Part shown: positions 1 through 13,440 of the stretch, piece after piece
Position numbering within the stretch: position 1 is the first letter of the stretch
Layout: each line of letters opens with the position of its first letter
Assembly (NCBI GenBank): GCA_051439605.1
Contig: JBFRWN010000041.1
Location: 1 to 13,440, forward strand
Source: Synechococcus sp.
GTDB taxonomy: Bacteria; Cyanobacteriota; Cyanobacteriia; Thermostichales; PCC-7336
Reading direction: 5' to 3'
Length of the DNA stretch: 13,440 bases
Program-made: the position numbers and the translations under genes
The notes under the pieces: model-generated
Seen by the model: only the letters and a program-made list of their open reading frames with translations
What the model was told of the DNA's origin: nothing
The model's database searches: none

Positions 1-155
1 CCGACAATACCTTTCAACATGGTGGACTTGCCTGCGCCGTTCGGCCCGACAATGGCAGTCAAGCTACCTTCAGAGATTTCGGTCTGAAGTTGAATCACGG
101 CCGGATTCCGATCGTAGCCAAGCGTGAGGTTTTGGAAAGCGAGGGCGTGGGTCAT
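1..155 (-). CDS. Metal (Zn/Mn-type, ZnuC/AztA-like) ABC transporter ATP-binding protein, 5' part; runs off the window edge
   Basis: Not in the ORF track. Manual translation from ATG at 155: MTHALAFQNLTLGYDRNPAVIQLQTEISEGSLTAIVGPNGAGKSTMLKGIV. Has Walker A GPNGAGKST and the typical 'NLTLGY..PAV' N-terminus; lies downstream of zur. Confidence 0.88.
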   Translation of the reverse strand, partial: MTHALAFQNLTLGYDRNPAVIQLQTEISEGSLTAIVGPNGAGKSTMLKGIV

Positions 156-286
156 CGTCCCCCCGGCATGGAGGTTGCCCAGTAAAACCCAGCCCAGAGT
201 GCCGCGACAACCAGTGACGCAGCGGCCAGCCGGTGGCCAGCCCCAAGCATAAGAAGCCTCAGGCTTTGTTTGCGACGCGCATTCAT
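152..286 (-). CDS. 44-aa small single-pass membrane protein between zur and the ABC ATPase
   Basis: Manual translation MNARRKQSLRLLMLGAGHRLAAASLVVAALWAGFYWATSMPGGR*. Its ATG overlaps the zur stop (ATGA, 286-283) and its TGA overlaps the ATPase start (ATGA, 155-152). Basic N-terminus followed by one hydrophobic helix. Confidence 0.75.
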   Translation of the reverse strand: MNARRKQSLRLLMLGAGHRLAAASLVVAALWAGFYWATSMPGGR

Positions 287-684
287 GCCGGGATATCTCC
301 CGTTCCACATGAGGAGCAAAGGCCGTGGAGTGCGATGACGTGGCGCGTCGACGTGAATCCGGATTGCCCGGCAACGCGGGAAAGCTCCTCGAACAAGTTA
401 GGTGCAAAGCTTTCCTCAACCGTGCCACACTCGTCGCAGATTGCAAAGATCGACGCATGTTGGCACTCTTTATACTGGCAGGCAATGAAGGCTTTCAGCG
501 ATTCAAGACGATGAACCAGCCCTCGTCCAGCCAACACCTCTAGCGCTCTGTAAACCGTTGGCGGCGCGATTTTCGGACTGACCTGACGCAACTCCCCGAT
601 CACGTCATAGGCGGACAGCGGACCACTATGACCACGCAGAACCGCCAACACCTGCGATTGTGTTTCGAGTGCTCGCTTGCTCAT
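283..684 (-). CDS. zur: Fur-family zinc uptake regulator Zur, proteobacterial type (133 aa from ATG 684)
   Basis: SAYD...PPTVYRAL HTH; two CxxC pairs (CDEC, CSSC); residues equivalent to the E. coli Zur regulatory site in HRLES, FIAC, HASIF and VEE. A GAGGT Shine-Dalgarno upstream of ATG 684 favours this start over 717. Heads a metal ABC operon. Confidence 0.85.
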   Translation of the reverse strand: MSKRALETQSQVLAVLRGHSGPLSAYDVIGELRQVSPKIAPPTVYRALEVLAGRGLVHRLESLKAFIACQYKECQHASIFAICDECGTVEESFAPNLFEELSRVAGQSGFTSTRHVIALHGLCSSCGTGDIPA

Positions 685-722
685 ATTTACCTCGTCATTC
701 GAGCAATGAACAGTCACATTTT

Positions 723-2153: not shown

Positions 2154-2175
2154 CGCCAACCTCCAGGAGTTGCTT

Positions 2176-3165
2176 ATGATTGCCGCCATCAATCCCACCG
2201 ACAATCGCACAACGGTGCCTGTGACCGTGCTTACAGGCTACCTGGGAGCCGGGAAAACGACGCTATTGAATCGCATCCTGACCTACGAACATGGCAAGAA
2301 GGTGGCAGTCATTGTGAATGAATTTGGCGAAGTGGGTATCGACAATCAGTTGGTGGTGGATGCGGATGAAGAAATTTTTGAGATGAACAACGGCTGCATC
2401 TGTTGCACGGTGAGAGGCGACCTGATTCGCATCATTGGCAACTTAATGAAGCGGCGCGACAAGTTCGATCATCTAGTGATTGAAACGACAGGGTTGGCAG
2501 ACCCAGCTCCAGTGATTCAGACCTTCTTTATGGATGACGAAGTACAGGCGAAAGCTCAGTTGGATGCGGTGGTGACTGTGGTAGATGCCCGTCACATTTG
2601 GCAACACTGGGAAGCGGAAGAAGCAGTGGAACAAATTGCCTTTGCCGATGTGATTTTGCTGAATAAGGTTGACCTAGTGACGGAGGAAGAGCTAGCTCAA
2701 CTGGAGCAGCGGATTCGAGGGATGAATGCGATCGCCAAAATTCACCGCACCCGCGACGCACAAATCGAGATGGATGCCCTGTTGGGGGTTAACGCTTTTG
2801 ACTTGAATAACGCACTGAAAATTGACCCAGAGTTTCTCAACGAAACAGCGCACGAGCATGACGAAACCGTGGGGTCTGTGGCCCTGGTCGAGTCGGGGAA
2901 ACTGGATGGCGAGAAGCTCAACGCTTGGCTCAGCCAACTCCTACGCGATCGAGGTCCAAACATTTTTCGGATGAAGGGCATCCTCAACATTTCCGGAGAA
3001 GACCACCGCTTCGTTTTTCAGGGGGTACACATGCTGTTTGACGGTCGTCAAGATCGGCCCTGGAAACCGGACGAGCCCCGCAAGAATGAACTGGTCTTCA
3101 TTGGCCGCGATCTAGAGCAAATGAACCTGGCGGAGAGCTTTCGGGCTTGTTTGGTGAGCCAGTGA
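2176..3165 (+). CDS. COG0523/CobW-family (G3E) P-loop GTPase, putative zinc metallochaperone
   Basis: GYLGAGKTT Walker A, VNEFGE, GCICC metal motif, IETTGLA Walker B, NKVD G4, CobW_C domain (RMKG...QGVH...LVFIGR). AGGAG at 2165-2169 supports ATG 2176. Confidence 0.95.
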   Translation: MIAAINPTDNRTTVPVTVLTGYLGAGKTTLLNRILTYEHGKKVAVIVNEFGEVGIDNQLVVDADEEIFEMNNGCICCTVRGDLIRIIGNLMKRRDKFDHLVIETTGLADPAPVIQTFFMDDEVQAKAQLDAVVTVVDARHIWQHWEAEEAVEQIAFADVILLNKVDLVTEEELAQLEQRIRGMNAIAKIHRTRDAQIEMDALLGVNAFDLNNALKIDPEFLNETAHEHDETVGSVALVESGKLDGEKLNAWLSQLLRDRGPNIFRMKGILNISGEDHRFVFQGVHMLFDGRQDRPWKPDEPRKNELVFIGRDLEQMNLAESFRACLVSQ

Positions 3166-3261: not shown

Positions 3262-4338
3262 ATGCCCAAATCTAATAGACAGAAACTATTCAAACGCCTG
3301 TGGCAAACGACATTATCGGATTACGTGACAGCGATCGCCTGGTCACCTGACGGAGCATGGCTATTTGCCAGTTCCGCCGCAGGAGAAGTGGTGCGGCACA
3401 ACAAGAAGACGGGTGAAATGACTGCGTTGCAGGAGGCGCAGGGCGAATCAGTGGATGCATTGGCGATATCTGCCAATGGTGCTTTTCTGGCGGCAGGGGG
3501 ACAGTCGGGAACAGTGTGGATCTGGCAACTGGATGGCAGTACACCCATCTTGTTGACGACCCTGGAGCATGCCCGTGCTTGGATCGATCGCCTGCAATGG
3601 AATCCCCAACACCCTGAACTCGCCTTCAACCTTGGGCGCTATTGCCAGCTGTGGGACGCTTCCACCCAATCCGTTATCACCACCCTAAACTTCGAGTTCT
3701 CGTCGGTGCTCGATCTAGCATGGCATCCGCAGGGCAATCACCTCTCCCTCAGCGGCAATCAGAGCATCCAAACCTGGCAGCGACGTGACTGGGACGATGA
3801 CCCAACCGTGCGAGAGATTGGAGGTGCCAGTGGAGCGATCGCCTGGTCACCCAATGGCGCCTATCTTGCCTCTGGCTGTAACGATCGCTCCACCGTGGTT
3901 TGGGAGGAGGATAATCCCTACCCCTGGCGCATGCAGGGCTTTCCGGGTAAAGTCCGGCAGCTTGCTTGGTCAACGCCCCAAAAAGCTGTTGATGCGCCCC
4001 CCTTCTTAGCTTCTATCAGTGGCGAAGACGTTATCGTCTGGACAAAAGACCGCGATCCGTCAGTCGGCTGGAATCCTCAGGTACTGGACTTGCATCAGGG
4101 AATGGTCAGAGCAATCGCTTTTCAGCCCCAGTCACCCCTTCTTGCCTCCGCTGCCGAAGATGGCTGGCTTTGCCTCTGGCACCAACAAGCTAGTCGCCTC
4201 ACCCAAGTCCTTGAAGGTGCAGCCGCCGGATTCTCTTGTCTCGCTTGGACCCCTTCAGGAGGGGCGATTGCCGCTGGTGGTATCCAAGGGGAGGTACTGG
4301 TGTGGAGGGAAACCACCCAAGGGAAAGGATTTGGCTGA
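3262..4338 (+). CDS. WD40-repeat beta-propeller protein
   Basis: Repeated AIAWSPDG / ALAISANG / LAWHPQG / AIAWSPNG / AIAFQP / LAWTPSG units with ASG..DG...W signatures. Co-oriented downstream of the COG0523 gene. Confidence 0.92.
   Translation: MPKSNRQKLFKRLWQTTLSDYVTAIAWSPDGAWLFASSAAGEVVRHNKKTGEMTALQEAQGESVDALAISANGAFLAAGGQSGTVWIWQLDGSTPILLTTLEHARAWIDRLQWNPQHPELAFNLGRYCQLWDASTQSVITTLNFEFSSVLDLAWHPQGNHLSLSGNQSIQTWQRRDWDDDPTVREIGGASGAIAWSPNGAYLASGCNDRSTVVWEEDNPYPWRMQGFPGKVRQLAWSTPQKAVDAPPFLASISGEDVIVWTKDRDPSVGWNPQVLDLHQGMVRAIAFQPQSPLLASAAEDGWLCLWHQQASRLTQVLEGAAAGFSCLAWTPSGGAIAAGGIQGEVLVWRETTQGKGFG
4146..4260 (+). repeat. Direct repeat copy 1 (inside the WD40 gene); copy 2 at 9646-9757
   Basis: Begins with 36 identical nt CTCCGCTGCCGAAGATGGCTGGCTTTGCCTCTGGCA. 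Manual alignment gives 8 mismatches and one 3-nt gap over 112 nt. Confidence 0.95.
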
Positions 4339-4488: not shown

Positions 4489-5595
4489 TCAAGCCTGCAT
4501 CTCCTGCAAATAACAGTGGCAGTCAGGCTTCTCTATTAAGGAAGCCGCCAGCCGATTCAACACCACAGCTGCCATTAACCCGCCGCCAACGGCTCCTTCA
4601 GTGGTGATGTAGGGTACCTTGAGCTGCATCAATTGTCGCTTGGCAGCAGGAGCATGGCTAAATCCAATAGGTAGACCAATCACTAGGGCTGGCTTTAACT
4701 GCTGAGTTGCAATGGCCTTGCAAAGTTCTATCAGTACCGAAGGGGCATAGCCGACAACCCAGATGTTATCGTCTCCCAAATCTTGCAGTTGTCTCTTCCA
4801 GTGGGTATCTTGCCAGAAAGCCTGCTCTGCATCGGCAGCACTATTTACATGGGGATCGTCCATCAGCGTATGCCAGTTGCACCCCAGATGGGCGAGACGC
4901 ACCTGATCCAGACTGGTTACCACAGCAGGAATATCCCCAATCACCGTGCAACCAGCAGATAAAGACTCGCGGGCCGCTTTAATAGCGTCTGAGCTAAACC
5001 GAACAAAGGCAGCCAACGCCACATCACCACAGGTCAAAACCAGGTGAGACAGCACATCGGCTTCAATTTCCGGACGCCGAGAGAGATCCGGTAACAACTG
5101 TTGCAGAGATTCCTGAAAATTATCGGGATGATGGGCGGCCGCCGCATCCAGATGTTGCCAGAGTTCATCCGCCAGGGCTTGGGCCGTTTGCGCATCCACA
5201 TCTAATAGTCGTAAATGGGCCAGAGCCTCCGCCTGCACCAACTGGCAAGACTGGTCCCGCCCAATCACCCCCTCAAGGGCAATGGCCGTCTGGCGCAACC
5301 GGGTCAAGCGCTGTAAGACGGCCTGGTACTGCTGCTGCAGTTGCTCAACCAGCGTCTCAGTTGGTGGTACTGCTGGCTGAGCTTCCAGCATCTGCTTAAT
5401 GTGGGCCAATTGAAATCCCTGTTGTTTCAACGCCACAATCCTGTTTAGCCGTTGCACATCGGCTTCTGTATAGAGTCGGTAGTTGCTCTCGGAACGCCTG
5501 GGTTGAGGCAACAACCCAATCTGATGGTAGTGCCGCACCATGCGGGGGGTGGTGCCGTGGCCGACGGCTTGAGTGAGGTCTTTTATCGTGAGCAT
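4489..5595 (-). CDS. coaR: Cobalt-responsive MerR-family regulator fused to a precorrin isomerase (CobH/CbiC-like) domain, CoaR/CorR
   Basis: N-terminal MerR HTH (TPRMVRHYHQIGLL...NYRLY); CobH-like VVGYAPS...PALVIGLPIGF...AK...GG; C-terminal Cys-His-Cys (KPDCHC) as in Synechocystis CoaR; divergent from a P1B ATPase. Confidence 0.92.
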   Translation of the reverse strand: MLTIKDLTQAVGHGTTPRMVRHYHQIGLLPQPRRSESNYRLYTEADVQRLNRIVALKQQGFQLAHIKQMLEAQPAVPPTETLVEQLQQQYQAVLQRLTRLRQTAIALEGVIGRDQSCQLVQAEALAHLRLLDVDAQTAQALADELWQHLDAAAAHHPDNFQESLQQLLPDLSRRPEIEADVLSHLVLTCGDVALAAFVRFSSDAIKAARESLSAGCTVIGDIPAVVTSLDQVRLAHLGCNWHTLMDDPHVNSAADAEQAFWQDTHWKRQLQDLGDDNIWVVGYAPSVLIELCKAIATQQLKPALVIGLPIGFSHAPAAKRQLMQLKVPYITTEGAVGGGLMAAVVLNRLAASLIEKPDCHCYLQEMQA

Positions 5596-5599
5596 GTCC

Positions 5600-5631
5600 T
5601 TGACATTAACATCAATGTCAACCTTTACGCT
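5600..5631 (+). promoter_or_regulatory. MerR-type coaT promoter/operator
   Basis: -35 TTGACA (5600-5605), 20-bp spacer, -10 TACGCT (5626-5631). A perfect 8-6-8 dyad TTGACATT-aacatc-AATGTCAA (5600-5621) overlaps the -35. The long spacer is the MerR-activation hallmark. Confidence 0.88.
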
Positions 5632-5661
5632 AAGGGCGCTCTAAAATGCTGGATTCGATAG

Positions 5662-7593
5662 ATGACCTTGACAATGAGGGTGCGAAAGCGAGTGTTTTAC
5701 TGGGGGTATATCTATCCAGAGGTGATAGCAGTGATGCTGTGCGCCGGGTTGACATTGCTGGGAGGGTTGGCACTGCAGGAAAGTTGGGTGGGACTGGGGA
5801 GTGCGCTATTGTTGGCCGGGTATGCGATCGGGGGCTACGAGAGTGCCCGCGAGGGGCTGACCACCCTATGGCAAGAGCATGAACTAGATGTGGACCTGCT
5901 GATGATTATCGCGGCGGTGGGGGCAGCAGTACTGGGGCTATGGCAGCGGCAGTATTACCTGTTGGTGGATGGGGCGGTACTAATCTTGATTTTCGCTTTT
6001 AGTGGTGCTTTAGAAACCATTGCCATGCATCGCACCGAACGAAATATTCGCAGTTTGATGCAGCTGACGCCAGATACGGCGCGGCGATTGCTGCCAGGGC
6101 AGGAACAGGTGGTGGCAACTCAGGATTTGCAGGTGGGAGATCGTATTCTTGTGAAACCCGGGGAACTCATTCCCATCGACGGGCTAATTCGGACGGGCCA
6201 CAGCACCATTAACCAGGCCCCGATTACGGGAGAGTCGATTCCTGTAGAAAAGTCCCTGGGAGATGAAGTGTTTGCCGGTACTATCAACGGTAGCGGTGCA
6301 CTTACGGTGGAATTACACAAACCGCCGGAAAGCAGCCTGATTCAGCGAGTAATTCGGCTGGTGGAACAGGCTAAAACCAGCCAGCCCCCTTCCCAGCAAT
6401 TGTTGGAAAGATTTGAGCGGGGATATGCCCGATTGATCGTAGTATCAGGGCTGGTCCTGGCTCTGGTGCCACCCCTGCTCCTGGGCTGGAGTTGGGAAGT
6501 GACGATTTACCGGGCGCTGATTTTTCTGGTAGTGGCCTCTCCCTGTGCCCTGATGGCGTCGATCATGCCGACCTTGCTATCGGGCATTGCCCGGGGGGCA
6601 CGACAGGGGATTTTGTTCAAAGACGGAGCCCAGCTAGAAACCATCGGTCGGGTAAAGGCGATTGCCTTTGATAAAACTGGAACCCTCACAACCGGGATTC
6701 TGCAAGTGAGCGACCTGGTGGCGGCATCCGCTTTTCAGTCTGAACAGGTGTTGCAAATCATTGCTTCTCTGGAAGTCTATTCAGAGCATCCTATTGCCCA
6801 GGCCATTGTGCAAACGGCGAAGAACCGGAACATTCCTTTATTACCCATGGATGCTGTTCAGGCTGACGTGGGTCAGGGAATCGTGGGGGTTCTGAAGGGC
6901 GTTCCCACGCGCGCTGGCAAGCTTGCTTATGTCTCGGCTGATCTGGCTGACTCGATTGATGCTTCTCTATTCCAGGTCGGACAACAGTTCGAAAGTGAGG
7001 GGAAAACGATCGTCTGGGTCGTCCAGCACCAGCAGATCATCGGGCTATTGGCGGTAGCCGATCAGGTTCGCCCCCAGGCTGCGGGCTTATTGAGCACATT
7101 AAAACAAATGGGTATTCCAGCGACTGTCATGCTCACTGGGGATAATACGGTCACCGCGCAGACTGTTGCCCAAAGCATCGGCATCAATGAGGTTTACTCA
7201 GACTTATTGCCGGAGGACAAAGTCACCGCCATTCAGCACCTCCAGGATAAGTACCACACGGTAGCGATGGTGGGAGACGGCATCAACGATGCCCCTGCCC
7301 TGGCTCAGGCGTCGGTCGGCATTGCCATGGGTGGGGCTGGGTCAGATGTGGCGTTAGAAACTGCTGACATTGTGCTGATGGCAGATCGTCTGGACAAGCT
7401 GGATCAGGCCATTCGCATCGGCAAAAAATCACAACGCATTATTAAGCAAAACATCACCCTGGCGCTGACCTCAATTGCCCTGTTGATGGTAGCTAATTTT
7501 TTGGGAGAACTTACTCTACCGGCTGGAGTGCTGGGCCATGAAGGCTCAACGCTGCTGGTAACGCTGAATGGATTGCGGTTACTCAGGGCATAG
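5662..7593 (+). CDS. coaT: Cobalt-exporting P1B-4 type ATPase CoaT/CorT
   Basis: TGES, SPC in the transmembrane metal site (VVASPCAL), DKTGT phosphorylation site, SEHP, TGDN, GDGINDAP, HEGST. No N-terminal metal-binding domain. Divergent from coaR. Confidence 0.92.
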   Translation: MTLTMRVRKRVFYWGYIYPEVIAVMLCAGLTLLGGLALQESWVGLGSALLLAGYAIGGYESAREGLTTLWQEHELDVDLLMIIAAVGAAVLGLWQRQYYLLVDGAVLILIFAFSGALETIAMHRTERNIRSLMQLTPDTARRLLPGQEQVVATQDLQVGDRILVKPGELIPIDGLIRTGHSTINQAPITGESIPVEKSLGDEVFAGTINGSGALTVELHKPPESSLIQRVIRLVEQAKTSQPPSQQLLERFERGYARLIVVSGLVLALVPPLLLGWSWEVTIYRALIFLVVASPCALMASIMPTLLSGIARGARQGILFKDGAQLETIGRVKAIAFDKTGTLTTGILQVSDLVAASAFQSEQVLQIIASLEVYSEHPIAQAIVQTAKNRNIPLLPMDAVQADVGQGIVGVLKGVPTRAGKLAYVSADLADSIDASLFQVGQQFESEGKTIVWVVQHQQIIGLLAVADQVRPQAAGLLSTLKQMGIPATVMLTGDNTVTAQTVAQSIGINEVYSDLLPEDKVTAIQHLQDKYHTVAMVGDGINDAPALAQASVGIAMGGAGSDVALETADIVLMADRLDKLDQAIRIGKKSQRIIKQNITLALTSIALLMVANFLGELTLPAGVLGHEGSTLLVTLNGLRLLRA

Positions 7594-9645: not shown

Positions 9646-9757
9646 CTCCGCTGCCGAAGATGGCTGGCTTTGCCTCTGGCATAAAGCGAGTCGCCTCACC
9701 CAAGTCCTTGAAGGTGCAGGCGCCGGATTCTCTTACCTCGTTTGGAACCCTTCAGGA
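9646..9757 (+). pseudogene. Fragment of a second WD40 gene copy (direct repeat copy 2)
   Basis: Reads SAAEDGWLCLWHKASRLTQVLEGAGAGFSYLVWNPSG versus SAAEDGWLCLWHQQASRLTQVLEGAAAGFSCLAWTPSG in the intact gene. Similarity stops abruptly on both sides. Confidence 0.85.
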
Positions 9758-10098: not shown

Positions 10099-10320
10099 GT
10101 TTAGCCCCCAAGGGGCAGTCCTCTCCTAGATTGTCGGCAATCTTAATTGCTCCAACCGTTCTTCCTCTTTTTCCTGGCGGCGAATATACGCTCTGACCGC
10201 TTCCTCATCCAATCCCACCGTCGACACGTAATAGCCACGCGCCCAGAAGCTTTCGCCGCTAAAGTTTCGACGACGGCCCATGAACCCCTTGGCTATTCCA
10301 ATCGCGCTTTTGCCCTTCAT
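10063..10320 (-). mobile_element. IS200/IS605-family element remnant (right end plus 3' half of tnpA)
   Basis: Subterminal hairpin CCTCCGGC-AGA-GCCGGAGG (10072-10090) and second hairpin GCCCC-CAA-GGGGC (10104-10116) just after the tnpA stop. No left end found. Boundaries approximate. Confidence 0.85.
10126..10320 (-). pseudogene. tnpA: Y1 (HUH) transposase TnpA, C-terminal half only
   Basis: KGKSAI...FWARGYYVSTVG.DE...YIRRQE carries the catalytic Tyr/Gln motif. The N-terminal HUH half is missing; feoB-like gene ends 60 nt away. Confidence 0.88.
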
Positions 10321-10380
10321 GGAATGTGCAACGCCAAAATGAGAATCATATTCATCGCATATTTTGGCAATCTAGAGATG

Positions 10381-12018
10381 TTATGACCAGTTGCCTCCCC
10401 AGGCCAGAAGCATCGAAAAAACCATCGCGGCGAGCGCCTGCCGAGCTATCAGGCCCACCGCAAACCGCACCGACTGTTCGCGGGCGATGGTCAGTACCGT
10501 CACCAGGCAGGGCAGCAACACCCCAGCCAGATAAACTCCGGTTAAAATTTGCAGCGGCGTCAGCACAGCCAGGGTTGCCGGTTCGGCGAAGAGCAGCAGT
10601 CCATCTTTGCGAATTGAGGCCAAAATAACGGGTAGAGCTGCTTCTGGAGGCAGGCCAAACAACCCCATCAGGGGATTAATCCATCCCCCCAGAGCGGTGA
10701 TAAAGCCAAACCAGTCCAACACTGAGGCGACGATCGAGATCGCTAAAAAGATGGGAATCGCATTGGCAAAAAACTGGCTGAGGGTACCTCGGGTTTCTCG
10801 CCAAATAGCTGACCAGCGGGGCACTTCCAAAAATGTGCGCCGTTCAATCATCAGGGTATTGTGCGGAGAACGGGCTGCTTTAGGCGCAATCAAACGGGTG
10901 TAGATCAGGGTGGTCAGGGTTAAATAGCTCAGGTAGGGTACGACTAAGCCAGGCAAATTGGCGGCGCTGAAAACCCCCAGGGTGGCACCGAACTGGTAGG
11001 AACAGGCGGATCCAAAGGCGATCGCACTCACACAGGTCTGCCGGGAACAACTGGAACAAGCCCGAGTAGCGATCGCGGCGGGCACATTGCAGCCAAACCC
11101 CATAATTATCCGCACCAAGTCTCGCCCGGACAGGCCAAAAGGTCTCAGGAGTGGATGTAGCGCTACGGTAATGCGTTCCACCAACCCACTTGCTTTGTAA
11201 GTGCCTAAAAACAGGGCATACAGAATCACCGTAGGGACGGCCCAGACAAATAACAGCGGACCCATCGTGACTAAGCCATAGCGGCCAATCAAAATCGCCT
11301 CTAGCAGCGATGGGGCCCGAGATAGGACATTGACCAGAGGGGCTAATCCGGTTTGTATCAGCGGATCGAGCATGCCCGCGACTCCATTGGCGACCCAAAC
11401 GGCAATGACCGCAGGCAACAGCAACAAAAGGATGGCCATCAACCAACCCCAGCGGGGATGCTCCAACCAAGTGGGCGCGGGCTCGATCCGCCAGCCTGCC
11501 GGAATCGGGTGCCATTGCTGAGGAAAGGGGGCTGGAGTCTGCAACCCCTCTAAAATCTGCTGGCGTTGTTCCTGGCTTAAATGACGGGCATCCACGGGAA
11601 TAAACCTCACCTGGAAGGTTTGCTCCCAGCGACCCACGACCTGCTGGGTGAAGTCAGACGGCAACACTTTATCCCAGAAGGTGACGACCACCAGCCCTTG
11701 TTTCCCGGCCACTAACGGTAGCAAATCCGCCAGTTCATCGTCTATGTGGGTCGCTTTAATGACTAACAAAATCCTGTCATGGGCCTGGAGTTGCGCTAGA
11801 GCAGTTCGGGTGGTGGTGGTGTCGGAGCGAAAGAGAATGCCTGGGGTGTCGATCAAGGCATCGTCTCTGGTCTGATAGGTCTCGCAGGCGATCGTCGAGC
11901 CCTGAATGTTAGTGCCGACAGGTGATCGCCCCGTGAGTGCTGCTGCTAGTTCAGATTTACCGGTGCTTTCTTTGCCAACAATTACGGTGGTGCGTCGGGC
12001 AGGCGGGGCAGTGGGCAT
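10381..12018 (-). CDS. Compact FeoB-like protein: N-terminal small GTPase domain plus Gate (nucleoside-recognition) membrane domain
   Basis: G1 GKESTGKS, G2 region NIQGST, G3 DTPG, atypical G4 TFWD. FeoB-like SG...R...G.SG....MGFGCNVPA, SACS, FLE.P and LLPC motifs. 545 aa from ATG 12018; the ORF is open to 12108 but that extension runs through low-complexity repeats. Confidence 0.85.
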   Translation of the reverse strand: MPTAPPARRTTVIVGKESTGKSELAAALTGRSPVGTNIQGSTIACETYQTRDDALIDTPGILFRSDTTTTRTALAQLQAHDRILLVIKATHIDDELADLLPLVAGKQGLVVVTFWDKVLPSDFTQQVVGRWEQTFQVRFIPVDARHLSQEQRQQILEGLQTPAPFPQQWHPIPAGWRIEPAPTWLEHPRWGWLMAILLLLLPAVIAVWVANGVAGMLDPLIQTGLAPLVNVLSRAPSLLEAILIGRYGLVTMGPLLFVWAVPTVILYALFLGTYKASGLVERITVALHPLLRPFGLSGRDLVRIIMGFGCNVPAAIATRACSSCSRQTCVSAIAFGSACSYQFGATLGVFSAANLPGLVVPYLSYLTLTTLIYTRLIAPKAARSPHNTLMIERRTFLEVPRWSAIWRETRGTLSQFFANAIPIFLAISIVASVLDWFGFITALGGWINPLMGLFGLPPEAALPVILASIRKDGLLLFAEPATLAVLTPLQILTGVYLAGVLLPCLVTVLTIAREQSVRFAVGLIARQALAAMVFSMLLAWGGNWS

Positions 12019-12094
12019 GGGGAGGGGAATGGGTGGATAGGCGGGGAGTGAAAAGGTGCAAGTTCTTAGTTTTGAGTTGGCGGCTGAGTAGAAG

Positions 12095-12120
12095 AATTCA
12101 AAATTCAAAATTCAAAATTC
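12095..12120. repeat. Heptamer tandem repeat (AATTCAA)x3.7, cyanobacterial STRR-like
   Basis: AATTCAA AATTCAA AATTCAA AATTC directly after the oxidoreductase stop. A degenerate AGTTCTT-AGTTTTG-AGTTGGC set lies at 12061-12081. Confidence 0.8.
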
Positions 12121-12129
12121 TGAACCTTG

Positions 12130-13254
12130 CTAACAAATGCAGTCGTTACTGCAGCAGGAGAGGTCATCGAGGAAGAGTCCGGCCTGTCGGTAGGCATCAA
12201 GGGGGCTGGGGTCGAGGCCGAGGCGATGGGCGATCGTATTGGCAATTACGGCAAAGCGCTGGCGGAATTTGTAGATGAAGCAGAAAATCAGGTCGCCATG
12301 CCGGACAGAGGGACCACTCACAAAGAGACCTGGAGTGAAGGTGGATTCGTCGTCTGGCGTGAGTGCAGCATAGCCTTCGGACCAATCGAATAGGTGAGCA
12401 ATCTGTTTCAAACTGGTGTCGAAACCGGTGCAGAGAATGGGGGGATGGGCTGTCGTCCACTTCTGATATTCGCTGTAGATTGCGTAGCCACCAGGAATCG
12501 GTTTGACTTCCTCAATGGGGGCGTTACTCACCATGTCTAGGCGACCGGTGCGATAGACAAATCCCAGACGCTGCATGGTGTAGGGTGACAGGGATACGCT
12601 GGGATCGGTGTCAGGCTCTGTCCAGACTCCCGTGCGATCGAGCACACCGACTTTCTTTCCCAGTGCCACTAAATTGGCAGCGGCATCCATGCCACTTTCG
12701 TAGCCGCCAATGATGATGAATTCGTCGCCCTCTAAATCCGCCCACGACCGAATCCGGCTGTTGTGGATACAGTGCTCTGCCCCCGGAAAGGGATTGAGAT
12801 GGGGATATTGATACTCCCCGGCGGCCCAAATGACAAATTGTGTGCGGATGTCTCCAGCGGCAGTATGTAGTTGAAAGCCCCCCTGGGACAACGGCTCGAC
12901 GCCCTTTACGTCAACCTCAGTCCGAATCGGTAACTCAAAGTGATCGGCAACGGTTTGCAGATACAGGGCGTATTGCTTGCCGCTGATATGCTCTTCCCGA
13001 AAAGCGATCGCAGGCGAAGTCTTCAAAGTCACTGCATTCAGGTCGAGCAGTCCAAAACCATGGCTTGGAAATGACGGGGTGATGAAGTTCATCTCTTCAG
13101 GCCAGCGACTAAAGGAAGCTCCAACCTGGTGTCTTTCTAAAATTGTGAAGCGTTCTAGACCCAGTTCTTGGAGCACGACGCCACAGCCAATGCCTGCAGC
13201 GCCGGCACCAACAATCACAACGTCATAGGACCGATTCGTTTGGGGTTGGCTCAC
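12130..13254 (-). CDS. FAD/NAD(P)-dependent oxidoreductase (pyridine nucleotide-disulfide / flavoprotein monooxygenase-like) with Cys-rich C-terminus
   Basis: DVVIVGAGAAGIG (FAD Rossmann), WAAGEY, IIGGYESG (NAD(P)H), LCTGF, FCFIYKFRQRF, tail DDLSCCSNDCIC*. GTG start at 13254. Confidence 0.9.
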   Translation of the reverse strand: MSQPQTNRSYDVVIVGAGAAGIGCGVVLQELGLERFTILERHQVGASFSRWPEEMNFITPSFPSHGFGLLDLNAVTLKTSPAIAFREEHISGKQYALYLQTVADHFELPIRTEVDVKGVEPLSQGGFQLHTAAGDIRTQFVIWAAGEYQYPHLNPFPGAEHCIHNSRIRSWADLEGDEFIIIGGYESGMDAAANLVALGKKVGVLDRTGVWTEPDTDPSVSLSPYTMQRLGFVYRTGRLDMVSNAPIEEVKPIPGGYAIYSEYQKWTTAHPPILCTGFDTSLKQIAHLFDWSEGYAALTPDDESTFTPGLFVSGPSVRHGDLIFCFIYKFRQRFAVIANTIAHRLGLDPSPLDAYRQAGLFLDDLSCCSNDCIC

Positions 13255-13280
13255 GCTGAATGATTCGAAATTATTGAGCT

Positions 13281-13305
13281 AATGAGAATGATAATCATTC
13301 TCATT
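13281..13305. promoter_or_regulatory. Perfect 12-1-12 palindrome, cyanobacterial Zur-type operator upstream of the oxidoreductase/feoB-like unit
   Basis: AATGAGAATGAT-A-ATCATTCTCATT contains overlapping TGAGAATGATAATCA and TGATAATCATTCTCA; 26 nt upstream of the GTG start. Confidence 0.85.
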
Positions 13306-13389
13306 TTATTTGTCCAGCATGTAATTCAGAAGGTACAAGGTGCAGTTGCTGGCTCCTGGCTTGTCTGCTTTTCCAGTCATTTCTGCGCC

Positions 13390-13440
13390 TTATCCCATCA
13401 ACGCCGCCGTTGTCAGGCCGAGACCGATGCAGACTGTGGC
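13390..13440 (-). CDS. Possible 3' end of a membrane protein gene entering from outside the window
   Basis: ...ATVCIGLGLTTAALMG* is a hydrophobic C-terminal stretch, too short to assign. Confidence 0.3.
   Translation of the reverse strand, partial: ATVCIGLGLTTAALMG

Follow-up and report, generated by a model that had tools for sequence, protein, structure and literature searches.

Two genes read in the same direction in a stretch of Synechococcus sp. DNA, one for a flavoprotein and one for a compact FeoB-like GTPase-permease, almost certainly make up a zinc-starvation module controlled by Zur. The reading favoured here, with a probability of about 0.6, is that the unit is a Zur-controlled importer of zinc or of a substitute metal. 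That the permease imports a metal of any kind is somewhat favoured, and zinc itself as the main cargo is rather less than an even bet. The operon structure, the Zur-type control, the conserved pairing of the two genes, the absence of FeoA and the separate branch occupied by the permease are either directly observed or strongly supported. The stretch, called the window below, is 13,440 nucleotides long and is contig C41 of a 4.9-Mb assembly that is 99.98% complete; its nearest protein relatives are cyanobacterial. An earlier note, written from the letters of this DNA, had described a palindrome, a 19-nt identity with a second operator, a 111-nt gap between the genes, a TFWD motif, extra cysteines and a CCSNDCIC terminus. 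All of these coordinates and motifs were confirmed, and its interpretation as a whole is partly supported. The features of the unit and of its regulon partner are as follows.

13281 to 13305, no strand assigned: perfect 25-bp palindrome (12+1+12; two overlapping 7-1-7 boxes), a Zur-type operator
13288 to 13316, minus strand: sigma-70-like promoter, TGGACA-17-TATCAT, with the spacer and the -10 element beneath the operator
12130 to 13254, minus strand: flavoprotein gene, 374 aa, GTG start, C-terminus CCSNDCIC
12133 to 12156, minus strand: four-cysteine tail CCSNDCIC (C367, C368, C372, C374)
12019 to 12129, minus strand: intergenic spacer between flavoprotein and permease, 111 nt, up to the ATG at 12018
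10381 to 12018, minus strand: FeoB-like GTPase-permease gene, 545 aa, with a G domain, a linker of ~30 aa and a membrane domain of Gate/concentrative nucleoside transporter (CNT) fold
2135 to 2153, no strand assigned: operator of the COG0523 gene, 19 nt identical, on the opposite strand, to 13281-13299
2170 to 3165: COG0523 gene

The palindrome at 13281-13305 is the longest in the window. The COG0523 gene lies ~7 kb from the operon behind the same box, in the same regulon and outside the operon. One promoter was found in the region where 1.8 were expected by chance, and what is informative is therefore only that it lies over the operator. The genome was scanned with a 19-letter cyanobacterial Zur consensus summarised from published sites (Haas 2009, PMC2770081, supplement file 6), which at two or fewer mismatches gave 14 matches, as against 0, 2 and 2 in three shuffles. 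These matches represent 11 sites. The only two perfect matches in the genome are the window operator and that of a second copy of the unit on contig C59, and six of the other nine sites precede folE, a COG0523 gene, a COG0523/hisI group that also includes a carbonic-anhydrase-like gene, two ZnuA-family ATP-binding cassette (ABC) systems, and zrgA. Both ABC systems score below their family cut-offs and are therefore described as zinc or manganese systems. A control with iron genes was weak: an isiA-type match turned out to be psbC, and a possible iron-binding solute-binding protein, whose identity as futA is unconfirmed, carries no box (best 8 mismatches). Neither isiA nor a long-chain flavodoxin was found in the source genome.

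A profile built from 57 relatives of the permease retrieved at least 79 GTDB loci, a sample in which 25 belong to the family of the window permease and 54 are FeoB-type; the phyla and locus counts that follow are for the matches listed. The family occurs in Cyanobacteriota, Bacillota, Planctomycetota, Verrucomicrobiota, Chloroflexota, Actinomycetota, Spirochaetota, Pseudomonadota and archaea. Of the 25 family loci, 19 encode the flavoprotein, with its gene directly upstream in 17; it occurs in none of the 54 FeoB-type loci, which bears out the conserved linkage proposed earlier. Among the six family loci without it, five begin no more than 300 nt from the end of a contig, and the sixth (L027) has another gene upstream. 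COG0523 genes show the same division (9/25 against 0/54), and neighbours of the zinc-starvation or Zur-regulon type (COG0523, hisI, thrS, folE/folE2, cysS and metal-ABC genes; 147 of 161 open reading frames scanned) accompany 14 of the 25. FeoA is found in none of 32 family loci (the 25 from GTDB, 3 from a plasmid collection and 4 from a genome search) and in 50 of the 54 FeoB-type loci. It is also absent from the window and from the 99.98%-complete genome.

Membrane-domain trees, both unrooted, were built with FastTree (150 rows, 10 short rows dropped) and with a quick IQ-TREE run (40 rows). In both, the family falls on one side of a branch with support 99, in agreement with the branch apart from FeoB expected by the earlier note; the FeoB set used is a non-representative sample. 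One protein of 534 aa (P0082) has FeoB-type G1 and G4 motifs together with two of the extra cysteines and Q342, and branches between the family and the FeoB-type set. In 8 of 22 genomes that carry the family, a FeoB above the curated cut-off is present as well, pointing to a separate job for the family; none was found in the source genome. The family is patchy in cyanobacteria: among 300 other genomes, all at least 90% complete, 4 have it, in one case (G233) in two frames. It is also present on 532 plasmid records, 499 of which are from Klebsiella. On the Klebsiella plasmid NZ_CP100602.1 (L088) the pair lies within a zinc-starvation island of hemB, thrS, folE2, dksA, zigA and hisI. The accessible part of Haas 2009 describes this plasmid island and leaves these two genes unnamed. 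The Acaryochloris plasmid copy sits among zigA and four Fur-family genes. Two pattern matches in viral contigs were not confirmed.

The type of box changes with the host. A cyanobacterial-type box at three or fewer mismatches is found in 6 of 9 cyanobacterial family loci, and a Bacilli-type Zur box at four or fewer mismatches in 4 of 5 Bacillota loci. The Klebsiella locus has a weak core of the proteobacterial type.

The cluster has been in print for some time. The accessible supplement of Haas 2009 (PMC2770081, Fig. S13) depicts a TrxB-FeoB-COG0523 cluster, 'Subgroup 14', in S. epidermidis, S. aureus, Crocosphaera and Cyanothece, which matches the staphylococcal COG0523/FeoB-like/oxidoreductase grouping mentioned in the earlier note. 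The S. epidermidis order with ZnuA in that figure, as far as it is accessible, matches locus L090. The S. aureus counterpart is SA2370-SA2369-SA2368 (NWMN_2483-2481; HG001_02624-02621). The available text of Peng 2017 (PMC5480029) gives 43-, 83- and 152-fold induction of NWMN_2481-2483 by calprotectin, which also produced an iron response, and 2.4-5.5-fold induction by sulfide without an iron-limitation response. The consulted part of the 2026 ZinS paper (PMC13586535) places a Zur box before the S. aureus operon, credited to RegPrecise, and names the permease a putative ferrous transporter. According to its Table S4, the oxidoreductase is raised about tenfold in a zur mutant (log fold change -3.30, adjusted P 4.5e-9), and the same source reports that the GTPase of the operon is also raised (log fold change -2.70), in a medium containing 10 µM FeSO4 and zinc. 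The change of box type with host and this zur-mutant experiment decide the assignment to Zur; together with the genome-wide consensus scan, they sustain the Zur control that had been proposed.

The window resembles this published cluster in the order of flavoprotein and permease, in the 3d1c-type flavoprotein with a CCx3CxC tail, in the Zur box, and in the position of the S. epidermidis permease (L090) inside the family's 99-supported branch. It differs in having a full G domain, of which the S. epidermidis permease (460 aa) retains only a remnant, and in having no COG0523 gene following within the operon. Since both the cluster and its regulation have been published before (the former since 2009, Zur dependence in S. 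aureus since 2026), the window contributes a further member and a sharper hypothesis rather than a first description, and the novelty is less than was implied. No functional study of the permease or flavoprotein was found in the searched literature, which omitted most subscription papers.

The permease begins at the ATG at 12018; an alternative TTG start at 12108 would give 575 aa in place of 545. Its main regions are the following.

11539 to 11994, minus strand: G domain (residues 9-160), with G1 GKESTGKS, G3 DTPG, G4 TFWD and G5 DAR
10993 to 11100, minus strand: Gate-1 region (residues 307-342), with C310 and C339 common with FeoB and the family-specific C321-x2-C324-x4-C329
10507 to 10611, minus strand: Gate-2 region, with R470-K471-D472 and C504; candidate membrane ligands common with FeoB (D or E)

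The Pfam Gate model matches the permease in two stretches, and the Gate motif GFGCNVP is followed by TRACSSCSRQTC. The AlphaFold model has a predicted local distance difference test (pLDDT) score of 89. Its G domain aligns with NFeoB at Z 17.8 (root mean square deviation (rmsd) 3.2, 165 residues aligned), and NFeoB structures are the top Foldseek and VIA-align matches. The membrane part has the fold of the concentrative nucleoside transporters CNTnw (5l24; Z 15.2, rmsd 4.9, 295 aligned) and CNT3 (8tz1; Z 14.3), from which it differs by its 9-10% identity, its FeoB-type cysteine ligands and its G domain. A sequence search of solved structures gave no match to the permease, no full-length FeoB was among its fold-search matches, and an ESM Atlas search returned Gate/FeoB clusters only. 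The permease is FeoB-like in fold and probable ligands, yet its scores leave it outside FeoB: against the TIGR00437 equivalog it reaches 99 bits, where the cut-off is 315.65.

The permease has in common with FeoB (TIGR00437, PRK09554; NFeoB structures 3iby and 3a1s) its G-domain fold, its two Gate regions and the conserved residues C310, C339, K471, D/E472 and C504. In the FeoB-type set C310 is conserved in 58/58, C339 in 57/58 and C504 in 57/57, and position 472 is D in 12 and E in 46 of 58. In the model, C310 and D472 would lie at the tips of the two hairpins and C339 and C504 where helices are broken, the four together making up a single central site. Other positions are peculiar to the family: C321 (86/92), C324 (84/91), C329 (65/92), Q342 (92/92) and the G1 Glu (67/69). 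The family has E-S for P-N in G1, T/S-x-x-D for N-x-x-D in G4, a G5 ending in Arg and the added CxxCx4C. The K+-ligand Asn (S18 here) is kept in 7 of 69 family rows, and so lost in 62, against 55 of 56 FeoB-type rows. The G4 Asn (T113 here) is found in none of 72 family rows against the same 55 of 56, and the family keeps the G4 Asp. The available text of PMC3153494 gives Asn11 of FeoB a role in K+ activation. A flavoprotein partner, a Zur box and the lack of FeoA, a usual but not universal companion of FeoB, complete the differences.

The ~100-aa helical (GDP-dissociation inhibitor, GDI) domain of FeoB is replaced here by the ~30-aa linker. The compact size pointed out earlier is real, as the 545-aa protein lacks the helical domain, but it is not peculiar: several FeoB-type proteins of 570-610 aa are also without most of this domain, yet are FeoA-linked, some having ~40 aa at its position. 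Compactness and the RKD motif were rejected as marks of the family, as FeoA-linked compact FeoBs have both. Also weakened was the idea that C45 of the G domain completes a Cys4 site with CxxCx4C; a cysteine occurs there in only 39 of 72 rows.

The G domain itself is missing from three members whose DNA context is readable (L024, 5285-6451; L027, 860-2002; L090, 5602-6984), and in L024 and L090 a COG0523 GTPase directly follows the G-less permease. A further 17 library proteins lack the domain; their context is unknown and they may be fragments. The G-less rows are scattered across the tree. As some members lack it, the G domain is probably a regulatory switch and not the power source. NTP gating as a necessary feature, which the earlier note had supposed, is weakened by these members and by the C59 copy, where a stop follows the domain.

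This second copy of operator, flavoprotein and permease (C59:4670-7762, L106) is 91.4% identical to window 10336-13440. Its permease has an in-frame TAG at codon 153, directly after the G domain, synonymous differences outnumber non-synonymous ones by ~2:1 in both halves, and a COG0523 gene abuts it convergently. The copy may have become a pseudogene recently, may be naturally split, or may come from a second strain within the assembly (contamination 4.12%).

The flavoprotein is of the FAD/NAD(P)H type (Pyr_redox_3). Its Rossmann motif starts at residue 14, leaving no signal peptide, and it is therefore probably cytoplasmic. Its close relative is the S. aureus structural-genomics entry 3d1c (E-value 2e-79; Z 43.6, rmsd 2.2, 351 aligned). 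The next folds are the bacillithiol disulfide reductase Bdr/YpdA (7a76, TIGR04018; Z 30.6) and a flavin monooxygenase (Z 30.0), tied, followed by the N-hydroxylase DesB (Z 27.6); one source names one relative CzcO. With Bdr/YpdA and the class-B flavin monooxygenases (4a9w, ArsO NF040505) it shares the two-Rossmann FAD/NAD(P)H fold (Z ~30). It differs from them in its 16-21% identity in structural alignments, in GGYESG at the second dinucleotide motif and in the four-cysteine tail, and it scores below the cut-offs of both Bdr/YpdA (75 against 339.9 bits) and ArsO (55.3 against 425 bits). In an alignment of 35 relatives, at least 90% keep each cysteine of the tail, and C325, after the second FAD-binding motif, is invariant. 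The model has a pLDDT of 90.6, with low confidence at the extreme C-terminus. A complex prediction for permease and flavoprotein (score 0.01, mark 0.32) weighs neither way.

These observations suggest how the unit may work. With zinc in excess, Zn-Zur on the palindrome would block the promoter and, as zinc falls, both genes would be expressed, a step that is strongly supported. The Gate/CNT-type permease, as modelled, would then move a thiophilic divalent metal, zinc or a stand-in, inward along a Cys3-Asp site of C310, C339, D472 and C504, with the G domain probably acting as a switch. The ion would be received by the family's CxxCx4C cluster, which appears to lie on the cytoplasmic side. The cytoplasmic flavoprotein, occupying the place of FeoA in feo operons, would use NAD(P)H to keep thiols reduced or to free thiol-bound metal. 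In the weakest step, its flexible four-Cys tail, the hand-off site suggested by the earlier note, might buffer the ion or hand it on towards the COG0523 chaperones and the spare versions of zinc enzymes. A fuller version, in which an old FeoB branch turned into an importer of zinc or a zinc-thiolate, with the flavoenzyme replacing FeoA, the GTPase optional and a thiol relay to the COG0523 chaperones, is tentative and on balance doubtful.

Several points weigh against an importer of zinc or a substitute metal. The computed evidence separates zinc from neither iron nor cobalt as cargo, and because FeoB-type proteins conserve C310, C339, C504 and an acid at 472 just as strongly, the sequence favours neither Zn nor Fe(II). 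As the genome has no other FeoB, the permease could be its Fe(II) route, and since ZnuA-family ABC systems and ZrgA share the box, an extra zinc importer looks redundant. The tail is missing in one (L022) and reduced in two (L016, L033) of 16 locus-derived flavoproteins. Of the nine other strong sites, three, each with two mismatches, stand at C112:2327 (L112), before a MobF relaxase, and at C27:82542 and C95:358, in unannotated DNA; they may be fortuitous or may belong to the regulon. In the archaeal, planctomycete, verrucomicrobial, spirochaete, Chloroflexota and Erwinia loci, no box of the three types sought was seen. The S. aureus operon is tied to the family through 3d1c, S. epidermidis L090 and gene order, and in the accessible proteomic data (PMC13586535) its oxidoreductase and GTPase were detected and its permease was not. 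No transport, metal-binding or growth data for family members were found in the same literature search.

A further objection is that the palindrome is identical at 17 of 19 positions (two mismatches) to the classical Fur box, so that sequence alone leaves Zur versus Fur undecided. An ordinary iron-regulated feo operon under FurA would account for this, and the genome does encode six Fur-family proteins. Such an operon is nonetheless scarcely credible: the same box precedes zinc-starvation genes in this genome, it becomes the Bacilli Zur type in Bacillota, the permease falls far short of the feoB cut-off, and in S. aureus the counterpart escapes repression when zur is mutated and iron is available (PMC13586535, in the part consulted). 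Induction by iron limitation only through FurA, nesting among canonical FeoB with a feoA partner, and a lack of linkage between the two genes had been named in advance as refuting outcomes, and none of them was found. A different proposal keeps the zinc sensor and changes the cargo, the unit being an importer of Fe(II) (or Mn/Co) rewired to Zur, with a flavoprotein that reduces or releases the metal and with substitute metals loaded into FolE, gamma-type carbonic anhydrase and HisI. It overlaps the substitute-metal arm of the favoured reading and is judged here as the iron-specific case, which is unlikely. The ligand set is identical to that of FeoB, C339 and C504 correspond to Cys429 and Cys675 of P. 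aeruginosa FeoB, where C675S abolished Fe-stimulated GTPase activity according to the available part of PMC4847171, and the source genome has no alternative FeoB. According to the summary in the accessible text of PMC3323870, Haas et al. suggested that COG0523 proteins with a link to zinc may provide a metal other than zinc. Telling against iron are the coexisting FeoB in 8 of 22 genomes, the constant absence of FeoA nearby, the replacement of the K+-ligand and G4 Asn in most members, and the extra cysteines, which favour a soft ion.

The nucleoside-transporter fold of the membrane domain, the Bdr/YpdA, monooxygenase and DesB folds closest to the flavoprotein after 3d1c, and its invariant C325 would also suit an organic cargo, such as a small sulfur compound or zinc complexed with a thiol or a metallophore. 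The flavoprotein would then act as a monooxygenase or disulfide reductase in making or breaking down the ligand, and the Cys clusters would be zinc sensors or structural. No recurring biosynthesis or export genes were seen in the 25 neighbourhoods (147 of 161 neighbouring open reading frames scanned), however, and the FeoB-type metal ligands are nearly invariant, which makes this quite improbable. Still less probable is a permease that imports nothing, acting as a membrane zinc or redox sensor or as an exporter redistributing metal to the envelope in zinc starvation. Several members do without the G domain or have it split, the genome already has high-affinity zinc ABC systems, and the fold does not reveal the direction of transport. 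The closest characterised relatives are importers, though, and Zur usually represses genes of uptake and sparing (PMC6103462, as far as consulted).

FeoB is regarded as the iron(II) transporter and the family proteins are annotated in that sense; a FeoB branch under a zinc sensor, lacking FeoA and in some members the GTPase, would show which determinants set the choice of metal and whether the G domain is motor or switch. It would also explain what is done by one of the S. aureus operons that respond most strongly to calprotectin and by a gene carried on 499 plasmid records from Klebsiella, and could account for the metal source of the COG0523 chaperones. Should the cargo be zinc, the permease would represent an uptake route distinct from the ABC and ZIP types, present in cyanobacteria, marine archaea, staphylococci and a Klebsiella plasmid island.

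Two further features lie beyond the permease gene, where no COG0523 gene is found inside the operon.

10338 to 10356, no strand assigned: weak second Zur-type box with 3 mismatches, just beyond the permease stop
10126 to 10320: IS200 transposase remnant, past the permease gene

At the equivalent position, the close relative L009 carries a box with 2 mismatches and the close relative L010 one with 1 mismatch, followed in L010 by hisI and a hexapeptide-repeat gene. The box in the window is probably the decayed operator of a lost downstream gene. The IS200 remnant adjoins a near-identical repeat (9646-9757) of the 3' part of a WD40 gene (4146-4260), and repeat and remnant together are traces of a second, broken COG0523-WD40 unit.

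The source genome contains seven COG0523 genes and six Fur-family genes. At one end of the window (3-717) is a Zur-like gene whose closest model is the proteobacterial-type PRK11639, followed by an ABC ATPase truncated by the contig end. An 88%-identical copy lies on contig C91 alongside a COG0523 gene and cysS, and the region is possibly an acquired zinc island. At 4489-7593 a MerR-CbiC fusion regulator is divergent from a heavy-metal P-type ATPase, an arrangement like that of the cobalt sensor CoaR and exporter CoaT.

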